Shown here in pieces: positions 28,526 through 52,300 of a stretch of 64,000 nucleotides of DNA; within the stretch, counting starts at the first letter, position 1; each line of letters starts with the position of its first letter. The translations under genes and the position numbers were made by a program. The stretch covers positions 2,232,001 through 2,296,000 of the forward strand of contig CM039003.1 of the NCBI GenBank assembly GCA_017499595.2, in the 5' to 3' direction. The stretch comes from Psilocybe cubensis (lineage: Eukaryota). The notes below the pieces were generated by a model that saw only the letters and a program-made list of their open reading frames with translations, had not been told where the DNA came from and did no database searches.

Positions 28526-30386
28526 TTATCTCCCCTGAGGGTTAAGGAGATCTTGGCCTGTGTTTCTGAACTTGCCCAGCTCCTTTCGCCATGGTTCCCA
28601 GATCTGCCCGTATTTCTTCAGGAGTCCTACGAGCTCCTGTCTTTGCTCTTTCTGTGAGACGAGTATTGAATAAGTCAAAAGGGATACCTGAGATTTGTAA
28701 GTAAAGAACTGACAATATTCCATGGCTCTTCTCCACCATACACATCGGTAAAAAGTTGTCCAAGCTCTGGGCGCTTGAGGGAGTCGGCTTTCTTGAAGGC
28801 TTTCATGACATCCGCCTTAAGACGCGCTTTCAACTCAGTCTCTGCGTCTGCATCCCACCAACCCTGAGATTCCATGAAAAGACGGAATCTTGTAATAGGG
28901 TTGTCGATACGTTTTTTGTCTTCCACCTCTGACCTTGCACGATACGCAAAAGAGTCATCGGAAGTAGAATGATGGCCAACGCTAGAAAATGATAGCCGTA
29001 TTAATAAATTATGCAATGGCGAGGTTGGTGATATAAGTAGTCAGCTTACCGATACGACATGGATTCAACGAGAACAGCGCGACCTTGCTCCAAGCAACGT
29101 CTCCTAGCCTCCCTTACAGCAGTCAGGACGGCAAGTACGTCATTACCATCTACTCGGATAGTATCAATACCATACCCAGGACCCCGGCTAGCAATACCAT
29201 CTCCGTTGTACTGCTCTGAACTGGGTGTGCTGATAGCAAACCCGTTGTTGCGTGCTATATAAAGCACTGGAGATGGAATGGTAGATGCCAGCATAAATCC
29301 TGCATGGAAGTCTGCAAAAAAAATATCAGGGTATTAATATAAAATAAACAACTTGTTTATTTAGATTGCATCCGGACATACCTCCCTCGGAAGCAGCGCC
29401 CTCTCCAAAATAGCATGCAGCGATATTTTGTGAGCGTCGGTTCGGCATTCGACGGAGAGCATACGCTACGCCAGCTGCTTGGGGTATCTGTGTTGCGAGG
29501 GGAGAAGATATTGTGTGAAAGTGGTGTTCCGGAGATCCAAAGTGCTGATTTTCGTTGAGATGAGTAAGGCCAAAGGGATATCTAGATAGGTTTCCAAGAC
29601 TTACGACGGGCATTTGCCTGCCTTTGCCCGAGGTATCGTTTTCGTTTCCAAAGACCTGGGCCATGATGTTATCTATGGTAAAACCTCGCCATAGAAGGAC
29701 TCCCATTTCACGATATTGACCTTGTTTTCAAAGTTTGAGCTTTCATTTTAAACCGATGCGAATACTTATGTACAAACCAAGTACTCTGCAGAGAATATTG
29801 CTTGTGTAAGTTTGCTAAGCGATGCTTGTGTAAAAAGGCTTACTCGTCGTCCTTTTCCAGGGCAGCAGCCGAGCCGATAATAGTGGCTTCTTCGCCGTAC
29901 TATCAGGGCGTTCGAGACCAGACATAGATATCATTCAACAATTACTCACAGCAGTCATCTATAAGCATTTAAGGTTTAGCAGTAGTTACGCGGAGCCATT
30001 GAAAAACATACGTAGAAGGATATCTTTCCCTGGCGCTGGACATTATATAGTACATTGTCCAAAGTTGGCAGAAGTTGCATGTGCTCGTACAATTTTCGAG
30101 CATAATCTTTGTCGATCTAAAAAAGAATACTCAAAACGCATCTCGAAGGGTCCAATGATGCTAGACCCACATCAGGTAGCTGGGCTCCTTGTAGTGGTTT
30201 ACCAACACCATCTATGAGACGATAGGTAGGTATTGGGTTATCTTTACCTCCAACCGAGTTGAAAAAATCGAGTTTTGTGATGATTGGAGACTGTGTGGTC
30301 GGAAGAAGGTCCCTTCGACTTGTATAACTTCGAGAAAAGGCCCTAGAGAACGCTGGGGTCGACCTTGTAAGCTCTGTCCGGATCAT
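28526..30386 (-). CDS. BCKDHA: Branched-chain alpha-keto acid dehydrogenase E1 alpha subunit
   Basis: [58 protein letters not shown]-terminal mitochondrial-type presequence. Confidence 0.95.
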
Positions 30387-30730
30387 GGTCAAGAGTGAGA
30401 GGTATGATGTCACGTGGGATTTACAACTCGATCGTAAATGGGGCAGTCGTAAATGAGATCGATCATCGGAGGAATGGCAATCACAAGTTTCCTAATCAGG
30501 ATACGGCGGTTGTTGGAGATTTCTTCTTTTTTCTGTTCCGTCGTTGCGAACCATGTGAACTTGGGCCAAGAACTGAGTAGTCTGCCAGTGAGAAAACATA
30601 TCAGGGCCGCCCCTGCTCTCTGAGCAAAATGGCAACTTGGACAGTCCCACATCGTTCCTTCCTTTTTCTTGTTTTTTTTTTTTCATTTATTCGTTCTGGC
30701 TAGTCCGGCGCCTGTGCTTCAAGGTTCATT

Positions 30731-32439
30731 ATGTTGATCCTTGCTGGTTTGCTTTTGTGGGTTATAGCCCTTGGAATGCAGGTCGTTCCTACTAGCGGCC
30801 TTAGATTCAACTTTTCGGAGGTTCAGCAGTGCCAACAGTTCACCGTTTCTTTCGCTGGGTCCAACCTCCCGAACACCAGTATCCCGGCGTCTCTATCGTT
30901 TCTCCCGATAAACTCCACTGCATTATCTGTTCAACTGCCTAACCCCTCTCTTGTCTCTAATGGCATTCTACTTTCAGCCGTTCCTTTCCCCGCAGGTTCC
31001 AATTTTCTTACTTCTCTTGACGATGCAACTGGGGAGAACCTCATTTTTGTATCTGACCTTATTCGAGTATTGCCTTCAACGGAAAAGGAAAGCAACTCTT
31101 GTCTTCCAGTGGGCAATTCAGATGCACCGAGGAGGTTTACAATATCTAGCGAAGTTACACAATGCGAGGAGTTGACGATCAATTACGACACCTCTGTTGT
31201 TTCCAAAGCCCCTATCGTTCGCCTTTTCAACCCTAAAGGTCCTTCGCGACTCCTAAACATGACCTCGGATGACAATACCCACGGTTCCGCAAAGTACCTC
31301 ATGAATTTTTCTCGAGGGAAGGAGATCTTGCTACTCATGGAGGGGGGTGGTTTCCGAGAAACATCTGCCATCATCACCAGTAAGAAATTTTTGATCCCTT
31401 TTTTCTAGCACTAAACGTTACTTTGTAACAGTTGGAGGTGACGCCGCCAGCAGTTCTGCTTGTCTGCGGAGACCGATCAATATGTCCAAGGTCGGCAGCT
31501 CCAATGGCGATGGAAACGAAGAGAAGTCGGAGTCTTCGCCAATACCATCAAAGTTCGTTAACCAGGCTGCCCAAAAACTTTAAAGTTGGTTGCTAACAGT
31601 ACGATAGAGCTATAATCATAGGCAGCGCCATTGGAGGGAGTGTTGTTGCATTAGTTGCACTCTCAATAATCATTTTCATAATTCGGGATCGTCAACGACG
31701 CAGGAAAATGATAGCAGCGGACGTAGAAACTTCGCAGTGGAAAAAAAAAATATCGGAGGAATGGAAGACGCAGCAAATATCCAACTCCAAAAGAAATTCA
31801 CCTATCCAGGGAGGAATTGTTGCTAATCCGATCTATGCGGTCCACTCGTCTTTCTTGTCGCCGACCAATTCCAAATTCCAAAGAATTAGCAGTGATTCTT
31901 GGGTGCAGGTTGCATCGGTAGATCGTCGGCTCCCTGAGTCTAATCAACATGGTTCACCTCAACCATCGTCACGAATATTGGTTCAATCACCACGATCAGA
32001 GGACCGCGTTTCGTTACAATCTCTAGACATTGAAGGGATGTTGAACATGGCAACTCTTCAATCTGAGAACAACCAGAGCAGGAAAAATTCGGTCGGCACA
32101 GTTCAGCTCCTATCCAACCTTCCCTCTTCTCCATCTCTAGCAGTTCCAGTGCCGACATACCTTTCGACGGAAACTTCAAGTTTTCACAGGCGAGATCCTT
32201 CAGATGTCCCAGCAGGGCCGGTTTCAATGTCATTTTCAGGCTACTCAGTAAATCCATTCGACCCAGAACGAAATTCCGTCACGCCTCCTGGCCTGGAAAA
32301 TACTTTACGTTCCAGTAGACCTATTGGTGGCGTTGGTCTTCCAGGTAATCCTCGAGATGTAGGAAAGTCAAGCAAGGGCCGTGCAGCATCTACATATAGT
32401 GGTAGAAGCAGCTCGGATTGGTATGGAATTGCCCGGTAG
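30731..32439 (+). CDS. Type I membrane protein (signal peptide, two Cys-containing ectodomain repeats, one TM, Ser-rich tail)
   Basis: Hydrophobic N-terminus, QQCQQFTVSF / TQCEELTINY repeats, AIIIGSAIGGSVVALVALSIIIFII TM followed by RDRQRRRK. Confidence 0.75.
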
Positions 32440-33274
32440 CCTGCTTCTATTATTTAGTTGTGTTTTCGATCTTTTGGATTGATGACTCGTTGTATTCATG
32501 GACATTTTAGCCCCCCTTTCCTCATTGTATTTTGTAGCTTTTGGCCCCTCCTTTTTGCCTTTACTTTGTCAACGACGCAGACAATTTCCTTTCCATTTAT
32601 TGTTAGTAATAAGGCCATGCTGTTTACTTGCTTGATTCTTGCAGCCAGGAGTTCTTTATTGGAAATGCTTGTCGTCCAGCACACTGAGCAGGACCTATCC
32701 ACCTGAGATATCGCGACGATGGTACATAATGACTTCCCTGGCACATCTAGGAATATACATGTAGCCATCAATGCCTTAAATCTGGGAGGACGGCATGCAA
32801 GGGTTGAAGCAACAGTCGTCCTTGAAAAAAATTTGCCAGTGTGGTTACAAGATATTTCAGATTCTGGGTCGATGGATGCCATAAGCTTGCAAAGGTCTTC
32901 ATAATTTTACGTTGAAGATCTGCCCCTAAAATTCAGATAGGGACAGATATTTTATCGGACCCTTCGATCCAAACTCAGGTGCTACGCGACCCAAAGTCGT
33001 ATAAGAAAGTTAAGGTGAGACCGGATGAGATGTGCCACAATCCTATGCGCTTCGTAATGCAGGTCAAAGAATCAAATACGTCACTAACATTTCCTGCCAT
33101 TGACTACAGTGTCAGGCAAGAGGTTATCAACCAACAGCTGTCATGGAGCGTCCTGGGTCGGCCAAATGATTCGAATTCAAATCGGTAAAAGAATGGCAAC
33201 GTACTAAACCAACGTAGGGTAAAAACCCTGGGACAATCATAAACTCTGCTCCGATACAGTTGTATGCAGAGTTT

Positions 33275-33627
33275 TCATGAATCGATGGCCATTTTGGCGT
33301 CGTCTTTGGGAAGTTTTTTAGCTTCTTCTGCGATCTTCTTGCGAGACCCTGTCAATAGCGCCAGGTAGTCCGCTCCTCCAAGAACACCGCCTTCTTTTGA
33401 GCTTGATGACCCTTTCCCCTTTCCAGCCTTTTCTTTGAGAGCGGAGTGCTTCTTGGACGCCTGAATTTGGGTGCGTGAGGATGCAGATGGCGTTGACGTG
33501 ACTGCGGTTGTTGCACTTGATTTCGCCTTCTTCGGCTAGATCGCATAGGTACTTCAAATTTTCGATATTGTGACAGAGAGAGGAGGATACATACAATTCG
33601 CTTGTGAACTTTGGCACTTTTCCCCAT
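33275..33627 (-). CDS. Small basic hypothetical protein (2 exons)
   Basis: MGKSAKVHKRI|PKKAKSS...GGVLGGADYLALLTGSRKKIAEEAKKLP with one GT-AG intron. Confidence 0.7.
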
Positions 33628-33751
33628 AGAGGACGCCAACGACAATGTTATATGCTGGGATTTGTGGTGGCGGTTTTCTTCAATAATCGTGACGGACTCA
33701 ATTGAATTAGACAACCATTTCCAAAAATAGAACAGACACCAAAAGTTTTTA

Positions 33752-34488
33752 GGCCCTGTTCGGTAGCAACTCACGCTGTGAGTTACTAACTCACGATTTC
33801 CATATTTGGTGCTTTGTGACAACATTTACCACTGGCTGAGCATGGTCACCCATCAGTCACATCGCCCAATATGTACATCTTCGCCATTTATAGAAATCGT
33901 GAGTTTATAACTCACGACCGTGACTTGCTACCGAACACACGGCGGGCAAAAGTGCTGACTAGTCAGCCTGGGAGTTGGTCTGACCAGTCACCTGACCAGT
34001 GTGCTGACTAGTCACCTGACTAGTCATGTAGCTGTCACGCATTTATTGTCACGCTGCTAAGTTTCTGTAATTCCGCTCATTGATTGTAGAACAGAGGATT
34101 TCTTTTCTATGCCCCAGACTTACACAGGGCGGGCATCGTGTACCTTCTAAACAACGTCGGGTGACCGTGCACAAGTACTCTGAAAGCGTGATTAGTTATC
34201 CATTTGTTTGAATAATGACCGAATTTCAACCAAACACAAGAAATATCCAATTCCGAGTCATTCATTACTTTTCCTCAGTGACAGTGCTTCGGAAGACAAT
34301 GGTTTATTCCCATTTAATCTTATGTTACTGAACTCATTTACCAATACTAACCAGCGTGACAACATTTGTGTGACCTCTCCTGACTGGTCAGTTGATTCGT
34401 CACGGAACGCGTCACGATATGGTCACGTGACTGGTCAGACCAACTCCCAGGCTGACTAGTCAGCACTTTTGCCCGCCGTGACAGGGCC
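33752..34488. mobile_element. About 190-bp MITE (outer) with GGCCCTGTTCGG termini, interrupted in its right TIR by a second MITE
   Basis: About 54-bp imperfect TIR GGCCCTGTTCGGTAGCAACTCACG... / ...CGTGACTTGCTACCGAACA|GGGCC; TA on both flanks. Confidence 0.8.
33938..34480. mobile_element. 543-bp MITE (inner), CAC...GTG termini, 3-bp TSD (CACTA/CMC-like)
   Basis: Perfect 54-bp TIR CACGGCGGGCAAAAGTGCTGACTAGTCAGCC...; TSD ACA at 33935-33937 and 34481-34483; subterminal TGACTAGTCA repeats. Confidence 0.92.
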
Positions 34489-35068
34489 TAAAAGGATGCA
34501 CGATGAAGGCTACCAATGTCGTGACAATCAGTGGACATCAAGGACAGGTTTTCCTATTAATCGAGTTTAGATAATGTTTATTTACACAAGTCTAATCACG
34601 CCGAAGACCCGCTCGTTTCAGGGAGCCTCACCTCTCTGACCGCTTCCAGTTCAACAAACACCAACATTCAAGGGTGGGCTCCCCCCAGTTGTCGACCCAA
34701 CATGTACCACCTGACATGAATGTTTGAGCTTTGTCTGAACAGGAGAACCGCGCTCGCATGCTTTGCAGCCTTTTCTCCGACACGTCTTGTCTCTGCAACA
34801 AGAAGTGCATCTCGACGCACCTCAGCATAAAAGACCGCCTGGAGAATCTGGTTCTCGCACTTTTGCGTCCCCCGCTCTCCAGGTAAGCTTTTACTGCTCG
34901 AAACTCGCTCGACTTCATCACCGCTGATCTCTGTTTTGCGTCCCCCGCTCTCCAGATCACGGTCACCCGAGTCTCTCTGCTCTCTACTTTAACTCGTATC
35001 GTGTCTATACTCGCATCCTCGTTCTCGCGAACCGGCCATCCTCGAACTCGTCATTCTTTTGTACTCTT

Positions 35069-36307
35069 ATGAGTGACCTTTCGGAGCACGAAGCCACACC
35101 CGAACAACGTCTAACCCCCTCCTTCGTTCTATCGGAAGAAACTTCGGCGGAGTGCGATAAGCACGTCGAGAATTACAAGAACGGTTCAGTTGAGAAGGCA
35201 GACACGCTCATTCTTATTCAGTCGACCCTCGCCAATGTTTATCCCGACGACCATTCGCAACACGTTATCGAAGCCATACATTCTTATCTAGCGATACTTG
35301 ACAACTTCGATGGATTACGCAAAGACGCATTACGACGAGGCGGAGGAGCTACTAAGTCAAGTGCAGGAAGTATCGAAGGAGAATCGGAGGAAGAGGGAGA
35401 CGATGAACCGGAATCATCTCATACCATCGAGACCCCTATCGACTGCGCGTCCAAGCGGGCGAGATCTCCTGTTGAGGATTTCTTCGCCGACCAGGAGCTA
35501 CCGCCGCGAAAACGACACGTTGAGGGAGGCGCGTTTCCGTGGGAGATCCAGGAGGCGCTCACACCTTCCAACCTTTCCCCCGAACTACTCCAGACCCAGG
35601 CCATACTCGCTACCATCGCGAAGGACTACAAGGCTGCCGAGGCGTCGCTCCTTAACTCCGCGAAGAGACCTGGGCTCACCGTTGAGCAGTGGAAACGAAT
35701 ATTACTTTCGAAATGCGCGGACTTCGACGCGATATTCAGCTCCCTGTACACAGTCACCATCGACGAGGAGAGGAAGGAGAAGATCGGTTCCCTTGAGGTC
35801 GTTGTCGGAGCGGCCACACCATCAAAGTCAGTCCGCGAACACTCTGATTGGACAATCGCGTGGAACCAATACGCGAGAGCGGTACTGTTCGTGTTCCCCC
35901 ACAGACACCGCGAGCTCAGCGCATACGGAGATTTCATCCTTCAACTGTTTCGTTCAACCCCCTCTTACCTCCACGAGAACGTCATCAACTACGACAAAGC
36001 GGTCCGACTTAGAGCCTCAAACCGACGGGACCTGCTCCTCGACGACCACGCCAGCTACACGGACCTCGGCGTCCTCTGGCTTCAACACGGAGGTGCTCAC
36101 AGCTCTGCGACCGCGAAGAATTCCAGGGAAAGCAGGTCGCGCTCAGTTGGTGCCCCAGGTTCGCACACCTCTAGGGCAAGACGAGAGGCATGTCGTCGCT
36201 ACAACGCCGGAAACTGTCCCAACACACAGGCAACATGCAACTACGCCCACATCTGTAGCGCCTGTAGGACAACAGGACATGTGGCCGACAAGTGTACCCG
36301 CAAATGA
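35069..36307 (+). CDS. Ngaro ORF1 Gag-like protein
   Basis: 412 aa ending in CRRYNAGNCPNTQATCNYAHICSACRTTGHVADKC (CCCH plus CCHC fingers). Confidence 0.88.
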   Translation: MSDLSEHEATPEQRLTPSFVLSEETSAECDKHVENYKNGSVEKADTLILIQSTLANVYPDDHSQHVIEAIHSYLAILDNFDGLRKDALRRGGGATKSSAGSIEGESEEEGDDEPESSHTIETPIDCASKRARSPVEDFFADQELPPRKRHVEGGAFPWEIQEALTPSNLSPELLQTQAILATIAKDYKAAEASLLNSAKRPGLTVEQWKRILLSKCADFDAIFSSLYTVTIDEERKEKIGSLEVVVGAATPSKSVREHSDWTIAWNQYARAVLFVFPHRHRELSAYGDFILQLFRSTPSYLHENVINYDKAVRLRASNRRDLLLDDHASYTDLGVLWLQHGGAHSSATAKNSRESRSRSVGAPGSHTSRARREACRRYNAGNCPNTQATCNYAHICSACRTTGHVADKCTRK

Positions 36308-38166
36308 TGTACGACGTTTCGTCACCAATCCCTTCGCCCCTGTGTATCGTTTCTCGCACCTTTCTTCGCGCCCTCTTTTCTTACGCTCACTCTATTGGTC
36401 CGAGGATAACACTTCTGCACATGTTTCTCTTGCCCGTTTCACCGAGACTGCCCAACCTCTGCCCCCTGTCCCCATCAACGAACTTAGGAATAGCGTTGCT
36501 CTCGACACTATTGCGTGTTATGGTCATTTTTTCAACATCACCACGCCCATTAATGCTGTCCGTCTGCACGCCTACCTCTTGCAACACCCGAATCCCGACT
36601 ACGTGAATTCTGTCATCGATGGCATCCAGAATGGGTTCTGGCCGTGGGCCGACACGGCTCGCACCCACTTGCCTCCGACCCTCGACGTCACCGAATACCT
36701 CACCGAGGAACGCCACATCACCTTCGCCAGCGAGCAGCGCGACATCGAAATCTCAAAGGGGCGTTTTTCTCAATCCTTCAGTTCCTTGCTTCCCGGGATG
36801 CTTGCAGTTCCAGTAGGGGTTGTACCCAAGCCTCACTCCCACAAACTCCGACTCGTTGTCAACCATAGCGCTGAACCTTTCGCACGAAACTCGTTGATCG
36901 ACAAAACACTGGTTTCTGTACCTCTCGACAGCGTTCAGTCACTCGGTAGTGTCATCCTTCGGCTGCGTCGGGAGGCCGGTCCACACGCTGAGCTCGTCCT
37001 CTTCAAGAGCGATGTGTCCGAAGCTTACAGACTCTGTCCTATGGCCCCTTTGTGGCAGATCAAGCAGGTTGTCAAGATCAACGGCCTTTTCAACATTGAC
37101 CGTTGCAACAACTTTGGTAGCAGAGCAGGAGGGGGCGTGTGGGGCGTCATTTTCAGCCTCATCTTGTGGATCGCTACCTCGATCTTGCTCATCCCTGATC
37201 TCTTTGATTACGTCGACGACGTTTTCTCAGTCACCCTAGCTGGCAACACTCTTTGGTACGCCCCGTACAATAAGATTCTGTCCGAACCTCAAGCCCGACT
37301 CCTCATGCTCTGGGACGAGCTGGGCGTTCCGCATGCCGAAGACAAACAGCTCTCCGGCACAGCCCTGACTATCATCGGGTTTTTACGTCGACACCGTGGC
37401 CATGACAATCACCATGCCCCTCGACTCCCTCCTCAATCTCATTCATGCGATCCGCGAGTTTGCCGTGATGGGTCGCCGTCCAACACTAGCTGATTACCAA
37501 GCAATCGCAGGGTGGATCAACTGGGCGTTAAACACCTATCCCCTCCTACGCCCCTGCCTGTCTAGCGTTTACGCAAAGATGGCAGGCAAGCACATTTCCT
37601 CTGCCAAAATCTACGTCAATAAGCGCGTCTGCCAGGAACTCATCTGGGCGGCAAACCACCTTGAGACATGCAATGGCGTGCTGTTCCTGGAGTCCTTGGA
37701 CTGGGACCTGGCTGAGGCCGACTACATCCTTCTGACGGACGCTTGTCTGTTCGGGATGGGCTTCTGGTCTCCATGTCATGACTACGGTTTCCAATATCGC
37801 ATCGTGTCCGCCTCACGCCCAATCTTCTACTGGGAGGCTTACACTGTCCTCTCCGCATTTGCTTGGATCCTCTCCTCCTGTTCTCCCCCACCCAAGCGCG
37901 TCGTCATCTACTGCGACAATACCAACACCGTAAATCTTTTCAGCACACTTCGCGCCACTCCGGACTACAACCCCATTGTCCTCACTGCCGCCGACCTCAT
38001 GCTACGTTTCAACTGCCAGCTGCGAGTGGTGCATATCGCAGGCGGTCAGAACACAGTTGCAGACTCCATTTCACGCTTCGACAATCAAGTCGCCCTCTCC
38101 TTCCGTCCCAATCTCCTGATTCGGAATTTTTTACCCCCACAGTTGATGCTGGGGGCAGATCTTTGA
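35298..38166 (+). pseudogene. Ngaro RT-RNase H, frameshifted in copy 1
   Basis: KSDVSEAYR, YVDD, TDAC, CDNTNTV, NTVADSISR; GGGTTTTTAC at about 37377-37386 has one more T than the other copies (GGGTTTTAC). Confidence 0.88.
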
Positions 38167-39164
38167 TGGCCCCACTGTCCCGCCCCAGGCAACCCGCAAG
38201 GATTGCCTGGTCGCTCGAGCGCTTACACCATGAACGAGCTATAGCTCTTGGATTTGCGCTCGAGCCCTCCTCCATTGCCGCCTACTCTTCCGCCCTCCAC
38301 TCTTACATCGCTTTTTGCAACCTCCACGCTTTCCCTATCAAACCTACCGCTGATACTCTCAGTTTTTTCATCGTGTTTATGTCCCACCACATCAAACCCT
38401 CTTCCGTGGCTGCCTACCTTTCCGGCATCTGCAGCCAGCTGGAGGCTTTTTATCCATCCATCCGCTCAACCCGTCAGTCACAACTCGTTCGCCGTACCCT
38501 CACAGGCTGCATCAAACTCCGTTCTGTCCCCACCACACGCCAGATGGCTGTTTCCTCAGAACAGATGCTAAGCCTCCACTCTCGCCTCATTCACTCCAAT
38601 GACTACGACACGCTGCTCTTCCTGGCCATTTGCACCGCCGCATTCAACGGTCTCCTGCGCATGGGTGAGTGCGTGTGGCCGGACTCTCACCACCTGCGTG
38701 ACTACCGTAAGGTTACCCGCCGCGCCACAGTGGAATCTACGCCATCCTCCTTCTCCTTCTTGCTACCTTCGCACAAGGCAGATCGCCTTTACGAGGGAAA
38801 TAAGGTGGTGATTCACGCCTCTAACGCAGGACAGGAAGCCCTTCTGGCTCTGCAGTTATACCTCGCACGCCGTGACAATGCTTTCCCTTTGAAACCCGAG
38901 TTATGGCTCCGTAGCGACGGCTCAGTCCCAACTCGTCGTTGGATGACATCCTTGCTCAAGTCATCCTTCCCAGGCCTCGGAATCTCAGGACACTCGTTTC
39001 GCCCCGGCGGCGCCACCTACCTGGCATTGCGCCGTGTCCCTTCCCATATCATCCAGGCGATGGGCCGTTGGAAGTCTGACACCTTCCAAACCTACATCCG
39101 AGAACACCCCGCCCTGTTGGCGGCACTTCTCTACACCTCCGTTGACCCTCGCACCACCCCATAG
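38166..39164 (+). CDS. Tyrosine recombinase (Ngaro ORF3)
   Basis: GLLRMGE, SHKAD, GHSFRPGGAT, GRWKSDTFQTYIR; ATG overlaps the RT stop (TGATG). Confidence 0.92.
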   Translation: MAPLSRPRQPARIAWSLERLHHERAIALGFALEPSSIAAYSSALHSYIAFCNLHAFPIKPTADTLSFFIVFMSHHIKPSSVAAYLSGICSQLEAFYPSIRSTRQSQLVRRTLTGCIKLRSVPTTRQMAVSSEQMLSLHSRLIHSNDYDTLLFLAICTAAFNGLLRMGECVWPDSHHLRDYRKVTRRATVESTPSSFSFLLPSHKADRLYEGNKVVIHASNAGQEALLALQLYLARRDNAFPLKPELWLRSDGSVPTRRWMTSLLKSSFPGLGISGHSFRPGGATYLALRRVPSHIIQAMGRWKSDTFQTYIREHPALLAALLYTSVDPRTTP

Positions 39165-39227
39165 ATGCTTGTTTTTTCTGTCCTTCTTGACTCCCCTTTC
39201 CTGCACCCTTTCCCCAGGGCGTGTCTC

Positions 39228-40810
39228 TGTTAGGAATCGACTTAAGTCAAGAGAGAAGAGTGCCCAAAGACCAAGTTGATATCGAAGCTGGGGTCTGACT
39301 ACTGACCCCAGGACCCTATATATACATGGAGACCGGAGTAACTACTTCCCGGACCAGAGTACTCGACATATGACAACTATCAATAGATGAAACAGGAGAA
39401 CGATAGACGTGGGACCGAACACAAAGATAGAACAAGGCATGACAGCGTGGGACCGTAACAGATAACGATAACGGATAGGGGTGGCACCAATACGTACCCT
39501 GACATCACCTCCCCTCTAAAGGTCGGTGTCCCAACGACCTGGTCTTCACCGTGGACGGTTTGCACCAAAGACACGAGGCGGTCCACCGCCACGACGCGCG
39601 GTCTGAATTCCCTCCCTAGGCTGAACAGGCCCGGGGCGAGAGTAACCGTCAGAGTGTTGCTGCGGAGCCCTGAGAGCATCCACCTCCATAGGCGAACCAG
39701 GGGCGAGCGACGAGGATGGGCTGGAGCGAGTGTCGACAGCCGTAGGAGTGGGCAAATGCGGAGAAGCCGTCCCGGAACGGGATGTCCGCGTAGTTGGGGT
39801 AGAGCTCGAGGTTGGAGTAGGAGAAGGAGGTTCAACGACGAGGGTAGGAGGGGCGGCAGTGGGCGCAGGAGGCTGTTTAGGCTTCTTGGACCTAGGGTTG
39901 CGGATGCGACGACGGGCAATCCGCTTGCCGATAGCAGAAAGAGCATCACCAACTTCACGAGCGGTGCCCCTAATAGTGACGGCACGCAAACCGGAGGTGA
40001 CGACGGGGGAGACCGAGATCTTTGCGTGCGAGATGTCGTGGATTTGGCGTAAGCCAGTTCCCGCGCGCCCTATGACATGGCCAGCCTGTTCGTCCGCAAT
40101 AGACAGGGTAGCGACGATCTTCTCGAGGGCGGCTTTGGTAGTAGTAGAGCGGATGGATTGGGGGTGCGGGGGCCCTGTAGTAGGGGTAGAGGTAGGTGCA
40201 GCCGGGCGTTCCTTCCTAGAGGTGCGTCGAGCGCGAGATGCGCGAGCAGAGGGAGTGGGAGCGGCAGGCGGTTTGGGTAGGGAGGCTGTGAGGCGTTCAA
40301 GTTTAGACTCGATGGCAGACAGTCGGTCATCAACCTTTTTATCGGCGTCAAACCGGACTTGCTGCGCCCTAAAGAGAAGGGCGAAACGGTCCTCAAGGGA
40401 CATCGTCATGAACCCATCGTAAGGCGAAGGAGGGTCGGCCATAGAGTATAGTAGGTGGGGGCAAGGTAGAGTGGAGTAGACAAGCGCTGCAGTGGATAGA
40501 GTACCAGGGCAACGTTGGGTAGCTTCGATATGCTGTTAGGAATCGACTTAAGTCAAGAGAGAAGAGTGCCCAAAGACCAAGTTGATATCGAAGCTGGGGT
40601 CTAACTACTGACCCCAGGACCCTATATATACATGGAGACCGGAGTAACTACTTCCCGGACCAGAGTACTCGACATATGACAACTATCAATAGATGAAACA
40701 GGAGAACGATAGACGTGGGACCGAACACAAAGATAGAACAAGGCATGACAGCGTGGGACCGTAACAGATAACGATAACGGATAGGGGTGGCACCAATACG
40801 TACCCTGACA
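39228..40810 (-). mobile_element. Non-autonomous LTR retroelement (1583 bp) encoding a KH-domain protein
   Basis: 277-bp LTRs 39228-39504 and 40534-40810 (TG...CA, one mismatch seen); 5-bp TSD GTCTC; PPT AGAGGGGAGGTGA; empty site present in the other Ngaro copies. Confidence 0.95.
39546..40442 (-). CDS. 298-aa coiled-coil + type I KH domain + PMEVD protein
   Basis: LSIADEQAGHVIGRAGTGLRQIHDISHAKISVS...RAVTIRGTAREVGDALSAI is a canonical KH domain with a GxxG loop. Confidence 0.88.
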   Translation of the reverse strand: MADPPSPYDGFMTMSLEDRFALLFRAQQVRFDADKKVDDRLSAIESKLERLTASLPKPPAAPTPSARASRARRTSRKERPAAPTSTPTTGPPHPQSIRSTTTKAALEKIVATLSIADEQAGHVIGRAGTGLRQIHDISHAKISVSPVVTSGLRAVTIRGTAREVGDALSAIGKRIARRRIRNPRSKKPKQPPAPTAAPPTLVVEPPSPTPTSSSTPTTRTSRSGTASPHLPTPTAVDTRSSPSSSLAPGSPMEVDALRAPQQHSDGYSRPGPVQPREGIQTARRGGGPPRVFGANRPR

Positions 40811-41000
40811 GTCTCCGTACGTCCGCTGTTGTCTGCTTATTGTCTCATAACTTCCCTGGTTTTCGCTGTTATCACCGACCTCAGGCATCCCTCAACGTTA
40901 GATGTCGTCGGATGTACTGTGTCGCGCGTTTCCGTGTGTTTCTCAAATTTATGCTTTCATGCCACCTTCAAATCTTTTCTTCAACCATCATACCTCCTTA

Positions 41001-43330
41001 CCGCTTTTTTGTACCTCCCGCAGTCGTTACACATTTTTTAGAGTACAAACTGCGCAAATACATCTCTTTTCTTTTTGCAGACGCCGCTGCTGATCACAGG
41101 GCGGGCGTCGTGCACCATCTACACAACATCGGGTGACCGTGCTTGAGAACATCTGAAAGCGTGATTAGTCGAGTTTAGATAATGTTTATTTACACAAGTC
41201 TAATCACGCCGAAGACCCGCTCGTTTCAGGGAGCCTCACCTCTCTGACCGCTTCCAGTTCAACAAACACCAACATTCAAGGGTGGGCTCCCCCCAGTTGT
41301 CGACCCAACATGTACCACCCGACATGAATGTTTGAGCTTTGTCTGAACAGGAGAACCGCGCTCGCATGCTTTGCAGCCTTTTCTCCGACACGTCTTGTCT
41401 CTGCAACAAGAAGTGCATCTCGACGCACCTCAGCATAAAAGACCGCCTGGAGAATCTGGTTCTCGCACTTTTGCGTCCCCCGCTCTCCAGGTAAGCTTTT
41501 ACTGCTCGAAACTCGCTCGACTTCATCACCGCTGACCTCTGTTTTGCGTCCCCCGCTCTCCAGATCACGGTCACCCGAGTCTCTCTGCTCTCTACCCACC
41601 ATCCATCCCTACAGTCACCACCTCTCTCAAACAATCATGGCTTTGCCCGCTAGCGCTTACAGTGTCTCTCAAGACACCCGGATGCCCAAGTGCTCACCAC
41701 GTCCCACATCCGTTCGGGCATCTCCCGCGTTCAGCTACGATTTACCTACACCCAACAATTCCGTCATACACCGTTACGGGCAGCGCACACCAACAGCGGG
41801 CGAACTCCTCGTACTACGCGAAGAACTAGAGGAGCAATTTAGGGACATGCCTGACATGGAGCTATTGGTTTACCTATTCGATTCCGTGTTATCGTGCCAC
41901 TCAGAGTGGGGTTGGCGCGGTCGTTTCATTCGCCAGTTCTTTTATGACCTATTCTACGAAATGCGTCGCCTAGGCTACTCCGAGTACGAATTGCTACGCT
42001 CTCTATTCCTGGCGCCCTGACGTACCCCAGATTTGCATGCGTTTCTTAGTACACACTGTCCCTTCACGCGTGCTACTCTTTTGTCCCGCTTTTTTGTACC
42101 TCCCGCAGTCGTTACACATTTTTTAGAGTACAAACTGCGCAAATACATCTCTTTTCTTTTTGCAGACGCCGCTGCTGATCACAGGGCGGGCGTCGTGCAC
42201 CATCTACACAACATCGGGTGACCGTGCTTGAGAACATCTGAAAGCGTGATTAGTCGAGTTTAGATAATGTTTATTTACACAAGTCTAATCACGCCGAAGA
42301 CCCGCTCGTTTCAGGGAGCCTCACCTCTCTGACCGCTTCCAGTTCAACAAACACCAACATTCAAGGGTGGGCTCCCCCCAGTTGTCGACCCAACATGTAC
42401 CACCCGACATGAATGTTTGAGCTTTGTCTGAACAGGAGAACCGCGCTCGCATGCTTTGCAGCCTTTTCTCCGACACGTCTTGTCTCTGCAACAAGAAGTG
42501 CATCTCGACGCACCTCAGCATAAAAGACCGCCTGGAGAATCTGGTTCTCGCACTTTTGCGTCCCCCGCTCTCCAGGTAAGCTTTTACTGCTCGAAACTCG
42601 CTCGACTTCATCACCGCTGACCTCTGTTTTGCGTCCCCCGCTCTCCAGATCACGGTCACCCGAGTCTCTCTGCTCTCTACCCACCATCCATCCCTACAGT
42701 CACCACCTCTCTCAAACAATCATGGCTTTGCCCGCTAGCGCTTACAGTGTCTCTCAAGACACCCGGATGCCCAAGTGCTCACCACGTCCCACATCCGTTC
42801 GGGCATCTCCCGCGTTCAGCTACGATTTACCTACACCCAACAATTCCGTCATACACCGTTACGGGCAGCGCACACCAACAGCGGGCAAACTCCTCGTACT
42901 ACGCGAAGAACTAGAGGAGCAATTTAGGGACATGCCTGACATGGAGCTATTGGTTTACCTATTCGATTCCGTGTTATCGTGCCACTCAGAGTGGGGTTGG
43001 CGCGGTCGTTTCATTCGCCAGTTCTTTTATGACCTATTCTACGAAATGCGTCGCCTAGGCTACTCCGAGTACGAATTGCTACGCTCTCTATTCCTGGCGC
43101 CCTGACGTACCCCAGATTTGCATGCGTTTCTTAGTACACACTGTCCCTTCACGCGTGCTACTCTTTTGTCCCGCTTTTTTGTACCTCCCGCAGTCGTTAC
43201 ACATTTTTTAGAGTACAAACTGCGCAAATACATCTCTGTTCTTTTTGCAGACGCCGCTGCTGATCACAGGGCGGGCGTCGTGCACCATCTACACAACATC
43301 GGGTGACCGTGCTTGAGAACATCTGAAAGC
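41001..43330 (+). repeat. Tandem 1085-bp B-A-X units (about 2.1 copies)
   Basis: Near-identical ORFs offset by exactly 1085 bp (41544 vs 42629). Confidence 0.92.
41637..42020 (+). CDS. 127-aa accessory ORF X in the Ngaro terminal repeat (other copies 42722-43105, 46976-47359, 48082-48465 minus, 62891-63274)
   Basis: Intact in all five copies, good ATG context (ACAATCATGG), helical-looking C-terminus. Confidence 0.6.
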   Translation: MALPASAYSVSQDTRMPKCSPRPTSVRASPAFSYDLPTPNNSVIHRYGQRTPTAGELLVLREELEEQFRDMPDMELLVYLFDSVLSCHSEWGWRGRFIRQFFYDLFYEMRRLGYSEYELLRSLFLAP

Positions 43331-43370
43331 CATCCCTTATTGTCTTTTCGCCACATCGGGGGTTCCCACG

Positions 43371-46300
43371 CGAGACTGCCCAACCTCTGCCCCCTGTCCC
43401 CATCAACGAACTTAGGAATAGCGTTGCTCTCGACACTATTGCGTGTTATGGTCATTTTTTCAACATCACCACGCCCATTAATGCTGTCCGTCTGCACGCC
43501 TACCTCTTGCAACACCCGAATCCCGACTACGTGAATTCTGTCATCGATGGCATCCAGAATGGGTTCTGGCCGTGGGCCGACACGGCTCGCACCCACTTGC
43601 CTCCGACCCTCGACGTCACCGAATACCTCACCGAGGAACGCCACATCACCTTCGCCAGCGAGCAGCGCGACATCAAAATCTCAAAGGGGCGTTTTTCTCA
43701 ATCCTTCAGTTCCTTGCTTCCCGGGATGCTTGCAGTTCCAGTAGGGGTTGTACCCAAGCCTCACTCCCACAAACTCCGACTCGTTGTCAACCATAGCGCT
43801 GAACCTTTCGCACGAAACTCGTTGATCGACAAAACACTGGTTTCTGTACCTCTCGACAGCGTTCAGTCACTCGGTAGTGTCATCCTTCAGCTGCGTCGGG
43901 AGGCCGGTCCACACGCTGAGCTCGTCCTCTTCAAGAGTGATGTGTCCGAAGCTTACAGACTCTGTCCTATGGCCCCTTTGTGGCAGATCAAGCAGGTTGT
44001 CAAGATCAACGGCCTTTTCAACGTTGACCGTTGCAACAACTTTGGTAGCAGAGCAGGAGGGGGCGTGTGGGGTGCCATTTTCAGCCTCATCTTGTGGATC
44101 GCTACCTCGATCTTGCTCATCCCTGATCTCTTTGGTTACGTCGACGACGTTTTCTCAGTCACCCTAGCTGGCAACACTCTTTGGTACGCTCCGTACAATA
44201 AGATTCTGCCCGAACCTCAAGCCCGACTCCTCATGCTCTGGGACGAGCTGGGCGTTCCGCATGCCGAAGACAAACAGCTCTCCGGCACAGCCCTGACTAT
44301 CATCGGGTTTTACGTCGACACCGTGGCCATGACAATCACCATGCCCCTCGACTCCCTCCTCAACCTCATTCATGCGATCCGCGAGTTTGCCGTGATGGGT
44401 CGCCGTCCAACACTAGCTGATTACCAAGCAATCGCAGGGTGGATCAACTGGGCGTTAAACACCTATCCCCTCCTACGCCCCTGCCTGTCTAGCGTTTACG
44501 CAAAGATGGCAGGCAAGCACATTTCCTCTGCCAAAATCTACGTCAATAAGCGCGTCTGCCAGGAACTCATCTGGGCGGCAAACCACCTTGAGACATGCAA
44601 TGGCGTGCTGTTCCTGGAGTCCTTGGACTGGGACCTGGCTGAGGCCGACTACATCCTTCTGACGGACGCTTGTCTGTTTGGGATGGGCTTCTGGTCTCCA
44701 TGTCATGACTACGGTTTCCAATATCGCATCGTGTCCGCCTCACGCCCAATCTTCTACTGGGAGGCTTACACTGTCCTCTCCGCATTTGCTTGGATCCTCT
44801 CCTCCTGTTCTCCCCCACCCAAGCGCGTCGTCATCTACTGCGACAATACCAACACCGTAAATCTTTTCAGCACACTTCGCGCCACTCCGGACTACAACCC
44901 CATTGTCCTCACTGCCGCCGACCTCATGCTACGTTTCAACTGCCAGCTGCGAGTGGTGCATATCGCAGGCGGTCAGAACACAGTTGCAGACTCCATTTCA
45001 CGCTTCGACAATCAAGTCGCCCTCTCCTTCCGTCCCAATCTCCTGATTCGGAATTTTTTACCCCCACAGTTGATGCTGGGGGCAGATCTTTGATGGCCCC
45101 ACTGTCCCGCCCCAGGCAACCCGCAAGGATTGCCTGGTCGCTCGAGCGCTTACACCATGAACAAGCTATAGCTCTTGGATTTGCGCTCGAGCCCTCCTCC
45201 ATTGCCGCCTACTCTTCCGCCCTCCACTCTTACATCGCTTTTTGCAACCTCCACGCTTTCCCTATCGAACCTACCGCTGATACTCTCAGTTTTTTCATCG
45301 TGTTTATGTCCCACCACATCAAACCCTCTTCCGTGGCTGCCTACCTTTCCGGCATCTGCAGCCAGCTGGAGGCTTTTTACCCATCCATCCGCTCAACCCG
45401 TCAGTCACAACTCGTTCGCCGTACCCTCACAGGCTGCATCAAACTCCGTTCTGTCCCCACCACACGCCAGACGGCTGTTTCCTCAGAACAGATGCTAAGC
45501 CTCCACTCTCGCCTCATTCACTCCAATGACTACGACACGCTGCTCTTCCTGGCCATTTGCACCGCCGCATTCAACGGTCTCCTGCGCATGGGTGAGTGCG
45601 TGTGGCCGGACTCTCACCACCTGCGTGACTACCGTAAGGTTACCCGCCGCGCCACAGTGGAATCTACGCCATCCTCCTTCTCCTTCTTGCTACCTTCGCA
45701 CAAGGCAGATCGCCTTTACGAGGGAAATAAGGTGGTGATTCACGCCTCTAACGCAGGACAGGAAGCCCTTCTGGCTCTGCAGTTATACCTCGCACGCCGT
45801 GACAATGCTTTCCCTTTGAAACCCGAGTTATGGCTCCGTAGCGACGGCTCAGTCCCAACTCGTCGTTGGATGACATCCTTGCTCAAGTCATCCTTCCCAG
45901 GCCTCAGAATCTCAGGACACTCGTTTTGCCCCGGCGGCGCCACCTACCTGGCATTGCGCCGTGTCCCTTCCCATATCATCCAGGCGATGGGCCGTTGGAA
46001 GTCTGACACCTTCCAAACCTACATCCGAGAACACCCCGCCCTGTTGGCGGCACTTCTCTACACCTCCGTTGACCCTCGCACCACCCCATAGATGCTTGTT
46101 TTTTCTGTCCTTCTTGACTCCCCTTTCCTGCACCCTTTCCCCAGGGCGTGTCTCCGTACGTCCGCTGTTGTCTGCTTATTGTCTCATAACTTCCCTGGTT
46201 TTCGCTGTTATCACCGACCTCAGGCATCCCTCAACGTTAGATGTCGTCGGATGTACTGTGTCGCGCGTTTCCGTGTGTTTCTCAAATTTATGCTTTCATG

Positions 46301-48008
46301 CCACCTTCAAATCTTTTCTTCAACCATCATACCTCCTTACCGCTTTTTTGTACCTCCCGCAGTCGTTACACATTTTTTAGAGTACAAACTGCGCAAATAC
46401 ATCTCTTTTCTTTTTGCAGACGCCGCTGCTGATCACAGGGCGGGCGTCGTGCACCATCTACACAACATCGGGTGACCGTGCTTGAGAACATCTGAAAGCG
46501 TGATTAGTCGAGTTTAGATAATGTTTATTTACACAAGTCTAATCACGCCGAAGACCCGCTCGTTTCAGGGAGCCTCACCTCTCTGACCGCTTCCAGTTCA
46601 ACAAACACCAACATTCAAGGGTGGGCTCCCCCCAGTTGTCGACCCAACATGTACCACCCGACATGAATGTTTGAGCTTTGTCTGAACAGGAGAACCGCGC
46701 TCGCATGCTTTGCAGCCTTTTCTCCGACACGTCTTGTCTCTGCAACAAGAAGTGCATCTCGACGCACCTCAGCATAAAAGACCGCCTGGAGAATCTGGTT
46801 CTCGCACTTTTGCGTCCCCCGCTCTCCAGGTAAGCTTTTACTGCTCGAAACTCGCTCGACTTCATCACCGCTGACCTCTGTTTTGCGTCCCCCGCTCTCC
46901 AGATCACGGTCACCCGAGTCTCTCTGCTCTCTACCCACCATCCATCCCTACAGTCACCACCTCTCTCAAACAATCATGGCTTTGCCCGCTAGCGCTTACA
47001 GTGTCTCTCAAGACACCCGGATGCCCAAGTGCTCACCACGTCCCACATCCGTTCGGGCATCTCCCGCGTTCAGCTACGATTTACCTACACCCAACAATTC
47101 CGTCATACACCGTTACGGGCAGCGCACACCAACAGCGGGCGAACTCCTCGTACTACGCGAAGAACTAGAGGAGCAATTTAGGGACATGCCTGACATGGAG
47201 CTATTGGTTTACCTATTCGATTCCGTGTTATCGTGCCACTCAGAGTGGGGTTGGCGCGGTCGTTTCATTCGCCAGTTCTTTTATGACCTATTCTACGAAA
47301 TGCGTCGCCTAGGCTACTCCGAGTACGAATTGCTACGCTCTCTATTCCTGGCGCCCTGACGTACCCCAGATTTGCATGCGTTTCTTAGTACACACTGTCC
47401 CTTCACGCGTGCTACTCTTTTGTCCCGCTTTTTTGTACCTCCCGCAGTCGTTACACATTTTTTAGAGTACAAACTGCGCAAATACATCTCTTTTCTTTTT
47501 GCAGACGCCGCTGCTGATCACAGGGCGGGCGTCGTGCACCATCTACACAACATCGGGTGACCGTGCTTGAGAACATCTGAAAGCGTGATTAGTCGAGTTT
47601 AGATAATGTTTATTTACACAAGTCTAATCACGCCGAAGACCCGCTCGTTTCAGGGAGCCTCACCTCTCTGACCGCTTCCAGTTCAACAAACACCAACATT
47701 CAAGGGTGGGCTCCCCCCAGTTGTCGACCCAACATGTACCACCCGACATGAATGTTTGAGCTTTGTCTGAACAGGAGAACCGCGCTCGCATGCTTTGCAG
47801 CCTTTTTTCCGACACGTCTTGTCTCTGCAACAAGAAGTGCATCTCGACGCACCTCAGCATAAAAGACCGCCTGGAGAATCTGGTTCTCGCACTTTTGCGT
47901 CCCCCGCTCTCCAGGTAAGCTTTTACTGCTCGAAACTCGCTCGACTTCATCACCGCTGACCTCTGTTTTGCGTCCCCCGCTCTCCAGATCACGGTCACCC
48001 GAGTCTCT
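43371..48008 (+). mobile_element. Ngaro copy 2, 5'-truncated (RT/RH-YR-B-A-X-B-A)
   Basis: Near-identical to copy 1 from about 36443; RT frame open to 45093; YR 45093-46091 has HSFR changed to HSFC. Confidence 0.92.
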
Positions 48009-51000: not shown

Positions 51001-52300
51001 ACCCTGCGATTGCTTGGTAATCAGCTAGTGTTGGACGGCAACCCATCACGGCAAACTCGCGGATCGCATGAATGAGGTTGAGGAGGGAGTCGAGGGGCAT
51101 GGTGATTGTCATAGCCACGGTGTCGACGTAAAACCCGATGATAGTCAGGGCTGTGCCGGAGAGCTGTTTGTCTTCGGCATGCGGAACGCCCAGCTCGTCC
51201 CAGAGCATGAGGAGTCGGGCTTGAGGTTCGGGCAGAATCTTATTGTACGGGGCGTACCAAAGAGTGTTGCCAGCTAGGGTGACTGAGAAAACGTCGTCGA
51301 CGTAACCAAAGAGATCAGGGATGAGCAAGATCGAGGTAGCGATCCACAAGATGAGGCTGAAAATGGCGCCCCACACGCCCCCTCCTGCTCTGCTTCCCAA
51401 AGTTGTTGCAACGGTCAATGTTGAAAAGGCCGTTGATCTTGACAACCTGCTTGATCTGCCACAAAGGGGCCATAGGACAGAGTCTGTAAGCTTCGGACAC
51501 ATCGCTCTTGAAGAGGACGAGCTCAGCGTGTGGACCGGCCTCCCGACGCAGCCGAAGGATGACACTACCGAGTGACTGAACGCTGTCGAGAGGTACAGAA
51601 ACCAGTGTTTTGTTGATCAACGAGTTTCGTGCGAAAGGTTCAGCGCTATGGTTGACAACGAGTCGGAGTTTGTGGGAGTGAGGCTTGGGTACAACCCCTA
51701 CTGGAACTGCAAGCATCCCGGGAAGCAAGGAACTGAAGGATTGAGAAAAACGCCCCTTTGAGATTTTGATGTCGCGCTGCTCGCTGGCGAAGGTGATGTG
51801 GCGTTCCTCGGTGAGGTATTCGGTGACGTCGAGGGTCGGAGGCAAGTGGGTGTCAGGGCAACACTATAATCAGTGTGACAAGGCCACCAACAAAGATTAA
51901 GCAAGAGAGAAAGAGAGAGAGCAGAGGGAGAGTAAGAGAGCAAAGAGAGAATAAGAGAGTGAGAGAGATTCAATGGTTCTAAGAGATCACACCAATGATA
52001 GTGGATATCCTAAGAGATTGAAGCTGAAGCTACAGCTACCTACAAGTCCAGTATTTATACTCTACAGCTATGCTAGAATATTCTCTACATTACATCATAA
52101 AGAAAGGTTAAAGAATAAAAGTGACATCATATAGAAAAAGGATGAGTAAGACTAGGAATGATATAGAATTTACTAGAAAGAAGTGGAGCAAGAAGGCTGT
52201 GATGAAAGAAATAAACTATCTAATCAGATAATTGATAAGATAATGAAAGGATAAGATAATTCTGTGAAGATAAAGAGGGGAAACTGGAGAAACCCTGACA

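Follow-up and report, generated by a model that had tools for sequence, protein, structure and literature searches.

What kind of element carries two near-identical long terminal repeats (LTRs) and, in the position where gag would be expected, a single gene for a protein with a K Homology (KH) domain? The question is raised by a 1583-bp stretch of the Psilocybe cubensis genome (assembly GCA_017499595.2, contig CM039003.1), situated in a segment of 64,000 nucleotides (positions 2,232,001 to 2,296,000 of the forward strand). This segment is the window to which all coordinates below refer. An earlier note, made from the letters of the window, had described the stretch as a satellite LTR retroelement with a KH protein as its sole gene, and this description is supported by the anatomy of the element, its copy number, the selection acting on its gene and the breadth of the family. 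We consider it probable (about 0.7) that the element is a recent copy of an old non-autonomous (satellite) LTR family of mushroom-forming fungi, propagated by a helper, with a KH protein that recruits the element's own RNA.

Anatomy and recent insertion of the KH element

The element, referred to below as the KH element, has the following parts:

39228-40810, minus strand: the whole LTR element, 1583 bp
39223-39227, no strand: left copy of the target-site duplication (TSD), GTCTC, which is single in two empty sister sites
39228-39504, minus strand: 3' LTR, 277 bp (the sense of the element is the minus strand)
39505-39517, minus strand: polypurine tract, in sense AGAGGGGAGGTGA, abutting the 3' LTR; a near-identical chromovirus tract lies at 52301-52316
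40521-40531, minus strand: primer binding site (PBS), in sense ATATCGAAGCT, 2 nt past the 5' LTR
40534-40810, minus strand: 5' LTR, 277 bp, from direct-repeat comparison
40811-40815, no strand: right copy of the TSD, GTCTC, matching the left copy

The two 277-nt LTRs differ by 1 mismatch (99.64% identity) and have TG at the start and CA at the end, read on either strand. With these termini, the TSD, the PBS and the polypurine tract, the element fits the structural definition of an LTR retrotransposon. The sequence that received it is a repeat with three copies in the window, and the sister copies at ~46150 and ~62065 are uninterrupted and have a single GTCTC, reading ...GGGCGTGTCTCCGTACG..., and thus present the exact empty site. 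Comparison of the LTRs and the two sister copies agree on the recent insertion that the earlier note had deduced from the single LTR mismatch, the GTCTC TSD and the empty site.

The interior measures 1029 bp, has no second copy in the window and holds one long open reading frame (ORF). No coding capacity for gag or for the pol functions protease, reverse transcriptase (RT), RNase H and integrase was found in it, either in the ORF listing or by Pfam, where KH_1 was the only match; the absence of pol had been noticed before and is borne out.

The KH protein

The only ORF encodes a protein of 298 amino acids (P0001), in which the following features were located:

39546-40442, minus strand: the 298-aa KH protein (ORF listing, Pfam, AlphaFold2)
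40281-40397, minus strand: long N-terminal helix, residues 16-54 (AlphaFold2, pLDDT ~95)
39930-40109, minus strand: type I KH domain, Pfam residues 112-171, with the GRAG loop at 40059-40070
39678-39692, minus strand: PMEVD motif, residues 251-255, common to the chromovirus Gag family
39576-39605, minus strand: basic tail motif QTARRGGGPP, residues 280-289, conserved in the family

The layout proposed earlier for the ORF (N-terminal helix, KH domain with GRAG, PMEVD, arginine- and glycine-rich tail) was recovered in full. Pfam returned KH_1 alone (E 7.5e-9, 35.7 bits against a cut-off of 21.5). The GRAG loop comprises residues 125-128, and its two glycines, G125 and G128, are invariant across 23 aligned sequences. 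The closest solved chains are KH domains of PCBP2 (2jzx, E 6.5e-4) and PCBP1 (1wvn, E 7.5e-4), followed by hnRNP K. AlphaFold2, run with an alignment of 67 sequences, models the helix at 16-54 and a beta-alpha-alpha-beta-beta-alpha KH fold at 109-175 with pLDDT 90-97, the remainder being disordered. Profile score above the cut-off, GxxG loop and fold topology are all those of a type I KH protein.

No capsid-like folded region was seen in the AlphaFold2 model, and the protein has no Gag match in Pfam and no CCHC knuckle. Descent of the KH protein from Gag was considered and rejected as unsupported (no capsid fold, no CCHC, profile alignment probability 1%). The wording "Gag-like scaffold" used in the earlier note thus holds as far as the gag position is concerned, which the ORF does occupy; no homology to Gag was detectable, and the likeness is one of analogy.

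A further ORF of 185-191 aa overlaps the KH ORF on the same strand in another frame, both in the window (39380-39946, minus strand) and in eight metagenome loci (L015, L017, L018, L019, L021, L028, L029 and L032). Its position relative to the KH ORF differs between the window and the metagenome subgroup, and it was set aside as a gene without a formal test; it is probably a by-product of a GC-rich coding sequence that is also rich in Pro, Ser and Thr codons.

Copy number and distribution of the family

Two raw DNA read sets carrying the same species label (X14 and X15) were mapped on positions 30000-41000 of the window, with the following depths:

X14: single-copy host depth ~30; KH-element interior 344-376; ratio ~12x
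X15: single-copy host depth ~34; KH-element interior 251-291; ratio ~8x

By read depth, there are about 8-12 copies of the KH element per genome. Reads which cross the LTR edge at 39227/39228 continue into mixed sequence (agreement 0.38-0.42), therefore the copies occupy many different insertion sites. At the protein level, one cluster at 90% identity has 14 members, among them 11 distinct intact 298-aa proteins on several large contigs. Further relatives in P. cubensis include two proteins of 275 aa and several truncated or fused ones. The single copy that would have spoken against the earlier interpretation is excluded by the depth ratios, the many flanks and the 11 intact proteins together, and a one-off gene capture with it.

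The family extends well beyond this species. Named relatives are found, besides P. cubensis (closest), in Agrocybe pediades (75% identity), Psilocybe cf. subviscida (~53%), Dendrothele bispora (48%) and Termitomyces. A profile search against 1.84 billion representatives yielded 1298, 285 and 71 clusters at E<=1e-3, 1e-10 and 1e-30, respectively, and the family is broad in Basidiomycota (the 71 clusters at E<=1e-30). The top matches are single-KH proteins of 250-400 aa which align end to end; multi-KH cellular proteins appear from ~1e-22 onward and match in the KH stretch alone. An Atlas search, which serves as a lead only, returned exclusively Basidiomycota KH clusters (scores 0.81-0.85). The alignment reveals a common layout: N-terminal helix, RK..AAPTSTP, conserved KH core, GKR(I/L)ARRR(I/V)RxPK, Pro/Ser/Thr linker, SPMxVD and QTARRGGGPP.

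Divergent relatives also lie between LTRs, as a search of 36 metagenome loci encoding family members showed. A direct repeat brackets the KH match in 19 of the 36, with ten internal LTR pairs and seven exact contig-end repeats among them. The contig-end repeats (127, 77, 63, 123, 99 and 40 nt) were rejected as measured LTRs and are read instead as circular assembly paths made of LTR plus interior. Locus L031 holds a complete element of 1970 bp with 387-bp LTRs and a perfect TSD, TTTCC, and L019 an element of 1977 bp whose TSD matches in 4 of 5 positions. The unit of LTR and KH ORF recurs at protein identities as low as ~30-45%. Ten longer family members gave KH_1 alone in Pfam, with no gag or pol domains.

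A subfamily of ~770 aa (P0137, P0146 and P0149) shares the N-terminal helix and the one KH domain with the rest of the family and has, in addition, a long linker and a conserved C-terminal block; KH_1 is its only Pfam match.

Selection on the ORF

The ratio of non-synonymous to synonymous substitution rates (dN/dS) was calculated by the Nei-Gojobori method for 16 intact ORFs (15 loci and the window), using the 54 pairs with dS 0.03-1.5. All 54 pairs fall below 1, with values from 0.25 to 0.66 around a median of 0.44. Among close pairs, the KH part has values of 0.06-0.27 and the remainder ~0.3-0.8. Among the 14 best-supported read variants listed in the ORF (there are 338 further variant places), 12 are synonymous third-position changes, and the two non-synonymous ones, S69P and P94S, fall in the first disordered linker. 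The KH ORF is under purifying selection, and the decay of the ORF among copies that the earlier note had contemplated is not what these values describe. The 11 intact proteins differ at 43 positions, mostly by changes confined to a single copy, many of which are of CpG-transition type (R to C or H).

Among the read variants of the repeated copies (30000-41000), C>T changes account for ~102 and G>A changes for ~130 of ~337 places, and degenerate copies of the KH protein have many R-to-C/H changes. The excess of C>T and G>A is the signature of CpG deamination or of a mutation process on repeats resembling repeat-induced point mutation.

Signals of probable self-priming

Three further signals lie in the LTRs:

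40585-40595, minus strand: self-primer site in the 5' LTR, in sense AGCTTCGATAT, an exact complement of the PBS; the 3' LTR copy is at 39279-39289
40596-40615, minus strand: 20-nt hairpin abutting the self-primer, stem GGGGTC/GACCCC; the 3' LTR copy is at 39290-39309
40622-40630, minus strand: TATA box TATATATAG, 35 nt upstream of the self-primer

The 11-nt PBS ATATCGAAGCT is exactly complementary to the LTR site AGCTTCGATAT, and no tRNA end complementary to this 11-mer was recognised. Because the PBS complements a site of the element's own LTR downstream of a TATA box, we propose that the KH element uses self-primed reverse transcription. A passage on Tf1 describes priming from the first 11 bases of its own RNA (PMC7175516), and self-priming is referred to elsewhere as typical of Tf1/sushi and Tcn1 chromoviruses (PMC6317226).

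Covariation was examined in the 36 metagenome loci, by seeking a PBS that stands 2 nt past an LTR end and is exactly complementary to another site of the locus. The arrangement stands beside the KH ORF in 23 loci. Three further PBS matches (L027, L029 and L031) were dropped since they lie elsewhere in the contig and are unrelated or belong to another element, and the 13 loci with no PBS match include many short contigs. Nine distinct primers were found, that of the window included, each with its own matching PBS (e.g. ACCTTGATAT, ATCTTTGCAA, ACCTTAGAAT and AGCTTGTTAT). This is strong evidence that the pairing of primer and PBS is functional, because both partners change in a compensatory manner across the divergence of the family. 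Enough upstream sequence for measuring the TATA spacing was at hand for 24 elements (22 loci, the KH element and the chromovirus of the window); a TATA-like box lies 33-36 nt upstream of the primer in 23 of them, the exception being the 5' copy of L019, which has a deletion. A hairpin abuts the self-primer in 20 of the 24, and its stems covary as well (GGGGTC/GACCCC, GGGGTATC/GATACCTC, GTCGTC/GACGGC and others). Its 3' arm is C-rich, and the hairpin, present in the KH elements and absent from the chromovirus of the window, could be a KH-binding or packaging signal.

A neighbouring chromovirus as candidate helper

An LTR retrotransposon of the type that would be required to propagate such a satellite is found 11 kb from the KH element:

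51851-58228, minus strand: candidate helper chromovirus, 6378 bp, with gag at 56178-57287 and the pol frame at 52301-55933

The two LTRs, 450 bp each, differ at no more than 2 positions, and the element is flanked by the TSD GTGGG. Pfam identifies Ty3_capsid, Retrotrans_gag and zf-CCHC in the Gag protein, and RVT_1, RNase H, rve, SH3_Tf2-1 and Chromo in pol. With PMEVD at residues 305-309, the protein at 56178-57287 is the true Gag that it had been taken for, with capsid, CCHC and the shared motif. The self-priming layout is also present: a 2-nt spacer, an 11-nt PBS AGATTGAAGCT and a primer AGCTTCAATCT 34 nt after TATAAATA. What the KH element lacks, i.e. protease, RT/RNase H and integrase, can come from a chromovirus of this kind.

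The two elements share the 5-bp TSD, the 2-nt spacer, the 11-nt self-primer and the spacing from TATA to primer. Both LTRs start with TGTCAGGGT and end similarly (CCTAACA in the KH element, CCTGACA in the chromovirus), and the polypurine tracts are TTAGAGGGGAGGTGA and TTAGAGAGGGGGTGA, respectively.

The only CpG-free stretch longer than 600 bp in the window (51837-58236) coincides with the intact-looking chromovirus, whose 6378 bp contain 218 GpC. Because the LTRs of the chromovirus are near-identical, the CpG-free state predates its insertion, and the lack of CpG looks like evolved CpG avoidance.

The PMEVD motif of Gag and the KH protein

In the Gag of the chromovirus, PMEVD lies 15 residues ahead of the first Cys of the zinc knuckle. 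The pattern [PAST]M[EDQH][VIL][DGS] was sought in 120 Gag homologues, 118 of which have a CCHC knuckle; it stands 14-17 residues before the first Cys in 115 of the 118, as PMEVD itself in 75, and P305, M306 and D309 are invariant in an alignment of 37 Gag sequences. For the KH family, the same pattern was sought in the last 45% of the length of 82 proteins of at least 240 aa, where it occurs in 43, a QTARR-type tail being present in 33. By a rough estimate, chance would place the pattern in under ~1% of proteins of this length. As far as sequence comparison goes, the match of the KH protein to Gag exceeds chance, because almost every member of the Gag family has the motif (115/118) and it is recurrent in the KH family (43/82).

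Retroelement proteases commonly cut between the capsid domain and the zinc knuckle, and the HIV-1 nucleocapsid likewise begins about this far ahead of its first Cys. Because the motif occupies the position between capsid domain and zinc knuckle in Gag, we propose that the helper may cleave it with its protease or use it for docking, and that the KH protein imitates it. A complex prediction of full Gag with KH residues 1-62 gave no answer (scores 0.00 and 0.00, controls not run) and is evidence neither way.

Proposed propagation of the satellite

The preferred reading envisages the following course. The satellite keeps the signals needed in cis, i.e. an LTR promoter with a TATA box, a PBS and the Tf1-type self-primer that matches it, a polypurine tract and LTR tips recognised by integrase. 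Because capsid, protease, reverse transcriptase, RNase H and integrase are all missing from the element, we infer a dependence on chromovirus proteins. An autonomous self-priming chromovirus, the type to which the one in the window belongs, would provide the proteins that reverse-transcribe and integrate the satellite, and selection keeps the KH gene intact in those lineages in which copying continues. The element's own RNA would be bound by the KH domain together with the basic stretches, and the KH protein would bring this RNA into helper particles, or to the RT and integrase of the helper. The helper machinery may handle the KH protein via the PM(E/Q/D)(V/I)D motif, as it would at the capsid-nucleocapsid junction of Gag; the motif is possibly a protease cleavage site, and a cut there would free the basic C-terminal peptide. 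A more specific version, which we offer tentatively and hold with some doubt, is that an Agaricomycete lineage of elements gave up capsid and nucleocapsid, that its KH ribonucleoprotein component marks its own RNA, and that this protein enters helper particles by mimicry of PMEVD and is cut there by the helper protease.

Several observations weigh against the preferred reading. We place the transcription start at the primer site from sequence only, and no transcript of the KH element was seen: the assemblies X16 and X17, guessed to be RNA, have no contig on 39175-41000, which is uninformative on silence; spliced host genes at 30.0-33.7 kb are present in both. An hhalign comparison of 67 KH proteins with 37 chromovirus Gags gave a probability of 1% and aligned the N-terminal helices alone, and 39 of the 82 KH-family proteins have no recognisable PMxVD under the pattern used. 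L013 (1535 bp, LTRs ~90% alike) has no TSD that we could find. The variable positions among the 11 intact proteins are evenly spread, 12 of 80 in the KH domain and 31 of 218 elsewhere. Since the KH domain is no poorer in single-copy changes than the rest of the protein, individual copies drift after insertion; constraint in the copying lineages combined with drift in the landed copies is what an active transposon family should display.

Other points against it concern the chromovirus of the window. The LTR bodies of the two elements are unrelated and only the 9-nt tips match; the observed/expected CpG ratio is 1.0 in the KH element (114 against 118.5) versus 0.00 in the chromovirus (0 against ~267). 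By their CpG content the two clearly had separate histories. Because the LTR bodies are unrelated and the composition is sharply different, this chromovirus family may not be the real helper. In addition, the protease region of the chromovirus (55894-56196) occupies a third frame, 100 codons long and overlapping those of gag and pol. Either programmed frameshifting occurs twice, or this copy has suffered a frameshift mutation; with its protease region extending into a further frame, the copy may be non-functional.

Alternative explanations

The motif shared with Gag lends itself to another reading, in which the KH protein is an antagonist that damps or diverts Gag assembly or the protease of the helper through PMEVD mimicry, or else shields the RNA from host silencing. 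In both cases the satellite would profit, although its packaging would not depend on the protein. A protein that has the motif of the helper Gag yet no capsid fold, and that is mostly disordered with short conserved motifs, has the appearance of a competitor for binding sites. A satellite which harms its helper harms itself, however, and the strongest constraint lies on the RNA-binding KH core (dN/dS 0.06-0.27), which fits the handling of RNA better than pure Gag mimicry; we regard antagonism as unlikely.

Two further explanations deny the element a life of its own. If the KH genes were a host-beneficial multigene family which only happens to lie between LTRs, in the way of the fission-yeast wtf genes between Tf LTRs, and has them as promoters, no unit would be retrotransposing. 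ORFs flanked by Tf LTRs and not known to be mobile do exist, according to a section of a review (PMC7175516), and neither RNA nor a new insertion has been observed for the KH element. Such a family would not account for the perfect TSD, the exact empty site and the near-identical LTRs, nor for the conserved PBS and polypurine tract with primer and PBS covarying through nine variants, nor for the many flanks in the reads and the perfect TSD that L031 has of its own. The TSDs, the empty site, the primer/PBS covariation and the many flanks point to retrotransposition of the whole unit, and a host gene family is very improbable. Even less credence is due to the idea that a decaying LTR element recently and passively took up a host KH mRNA, which would have no function there. 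LTR elements do transduce pieces of host genes, Bs1 of maize being an example given in part of the literature (PMC7264820), and the GC content of the ORF (0.61) differs from that of the chromovirus (0.40-0.46). Against this stand the recurrence of the unit of LTR and KH ORF at identities down to ~30-45%, dN/dS below 1, and the fact that the nearest matches outside the family are multi-KH proteins which appear only from ~E 1e-22 and in the KH stretch alone. The near-identity to a host KH mRNA that the earlier note had considered is excluded, the proteins forming a distinct single-KH family whose relatives are flanked by LTRs in many metagenome contigs.

Comparison with known systems

The Tf1/sushi group of chromoviruses (Tf1, Tf2 and Tcn1) resembles the KH element in its PBS, which is complementary to ~11 nt of the element's own LTR-derived 5' region and not to a tRNA (PMC7175516, PMC6317226). 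The 5-bp TSD and the TG..CA LTRs are also alike, and the neighbouring chromovirus has the Tf2-type SH3 domain and chromodomain. Unlike the members of this group, the KH element has no gag, protease, RT, RNase H or integrase and carries the KH gene only.

TRIM and LARD elements have no coding capacity, and gag-only elements such as BARE-2 keep a true Gag. The KH element is similar to them in being small, in its LTRs, PBS and polypurine tract and in its presumed mobilisation in trans; it differs in keeping a selected non-Gag ORF, and the conserved 298-aa ORF under purifying selection sets it outside the definition of TRIM and LARD. LINE-1 ORF1p consists of a trimeric coiled coil, an RRM and a C-terminal domain. 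By analogy, the KH protein has a long N-terminal helix, a domain of a kind that binds single-stranded RNA and a basic tail, and is encoded by the RNA that it would bind; the fold is KH instead of RRM, and the class of retroelement is another. The type I KH domains of PCBP and hnRNP K have the same GxxG loop and beta-alpha-alpha-beta-beta-alpha fold, but these proteins have three KH domains against one, and the helix and the AAPTSTP, PMxVD and QTARRGGGPP motifs lie outside the matches to PDB chains.

Bs1, as portrayed in part of one source, likewise has a cellular-type domain inside an LTR element in sense orientation (PMC7264820). Bs1 and its kin carry lineage-specific fragments, whereas the KH family is complete, conserved, equipped with added motifs and spread over many fungi. 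The wtf genes of fission yeast are, in a passage of the review cited above, ORFs of ~1 kb between LTRs of a self-priming family, and that passage holds that there is no evidence of mobility for these units (PMC7175516). The KH element differs from them by its TSD, PBS, polypurine tract and empty site.

No published LTR element with a KH gene was found in the full-text literature, the coverage of which leaves out subscription journals, supplementary files and curated repeat libraries. The data support the view that the KH element is a non-autonomous LTR retrotransposon whose conserved gene is unprecedented, is not a gag and contains a putative mimic of the Gag junction. Non-autonomous LTR elements are usually called either non-coding (TRIM, LARD) or Gag-keeping, and the KH family is neither. 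If its protein directs satellite RNA into helper particles, the family would offer a compact natural system for the choice of RNA in retroelement packaging, which would at the same time address the evolution of transposon parasites and the role of the PMEVD junction in chromovirus Gag. If PMEVD is indeed mimicked, the KH protein would represent a convergent solution among LTR elements, similar to LINE ORF1p, and a case of molecular mimicry between a retroelement and its hyperparasite. Dozens of fungal genes that now go under the label "K Homology domain-containing protein" or "hypothetical protein" probably belong to transposons, a point that bears on gene counts and annotation.

The repeat that received the insertion

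By its sequence motifs, the repeat which harbours the KH element is read as a tyrosine-recombinase (DIRS-like) element; Pfam gave no match for the ORFs of this repeat or for two host ORFs. At 34771-39174 its read depth is 0 in the raw DNA runs X14 and X15, and the KH element inserted in it stands at 8-12x. Either the repeat is absent from those strains at a likeness of at least 90%, or its reads were filtered out. Tandem units of 1085 bp follow each copy of the repeat (41001-43470, 46340-47724 and 62255-63639). A second repeat at 33670-34770 has a depth of 4-13x, and in both DNA runs reads join 33750 to 34493 with a skip of 742 bp, which suggests a polymorphic insertion or deletion.

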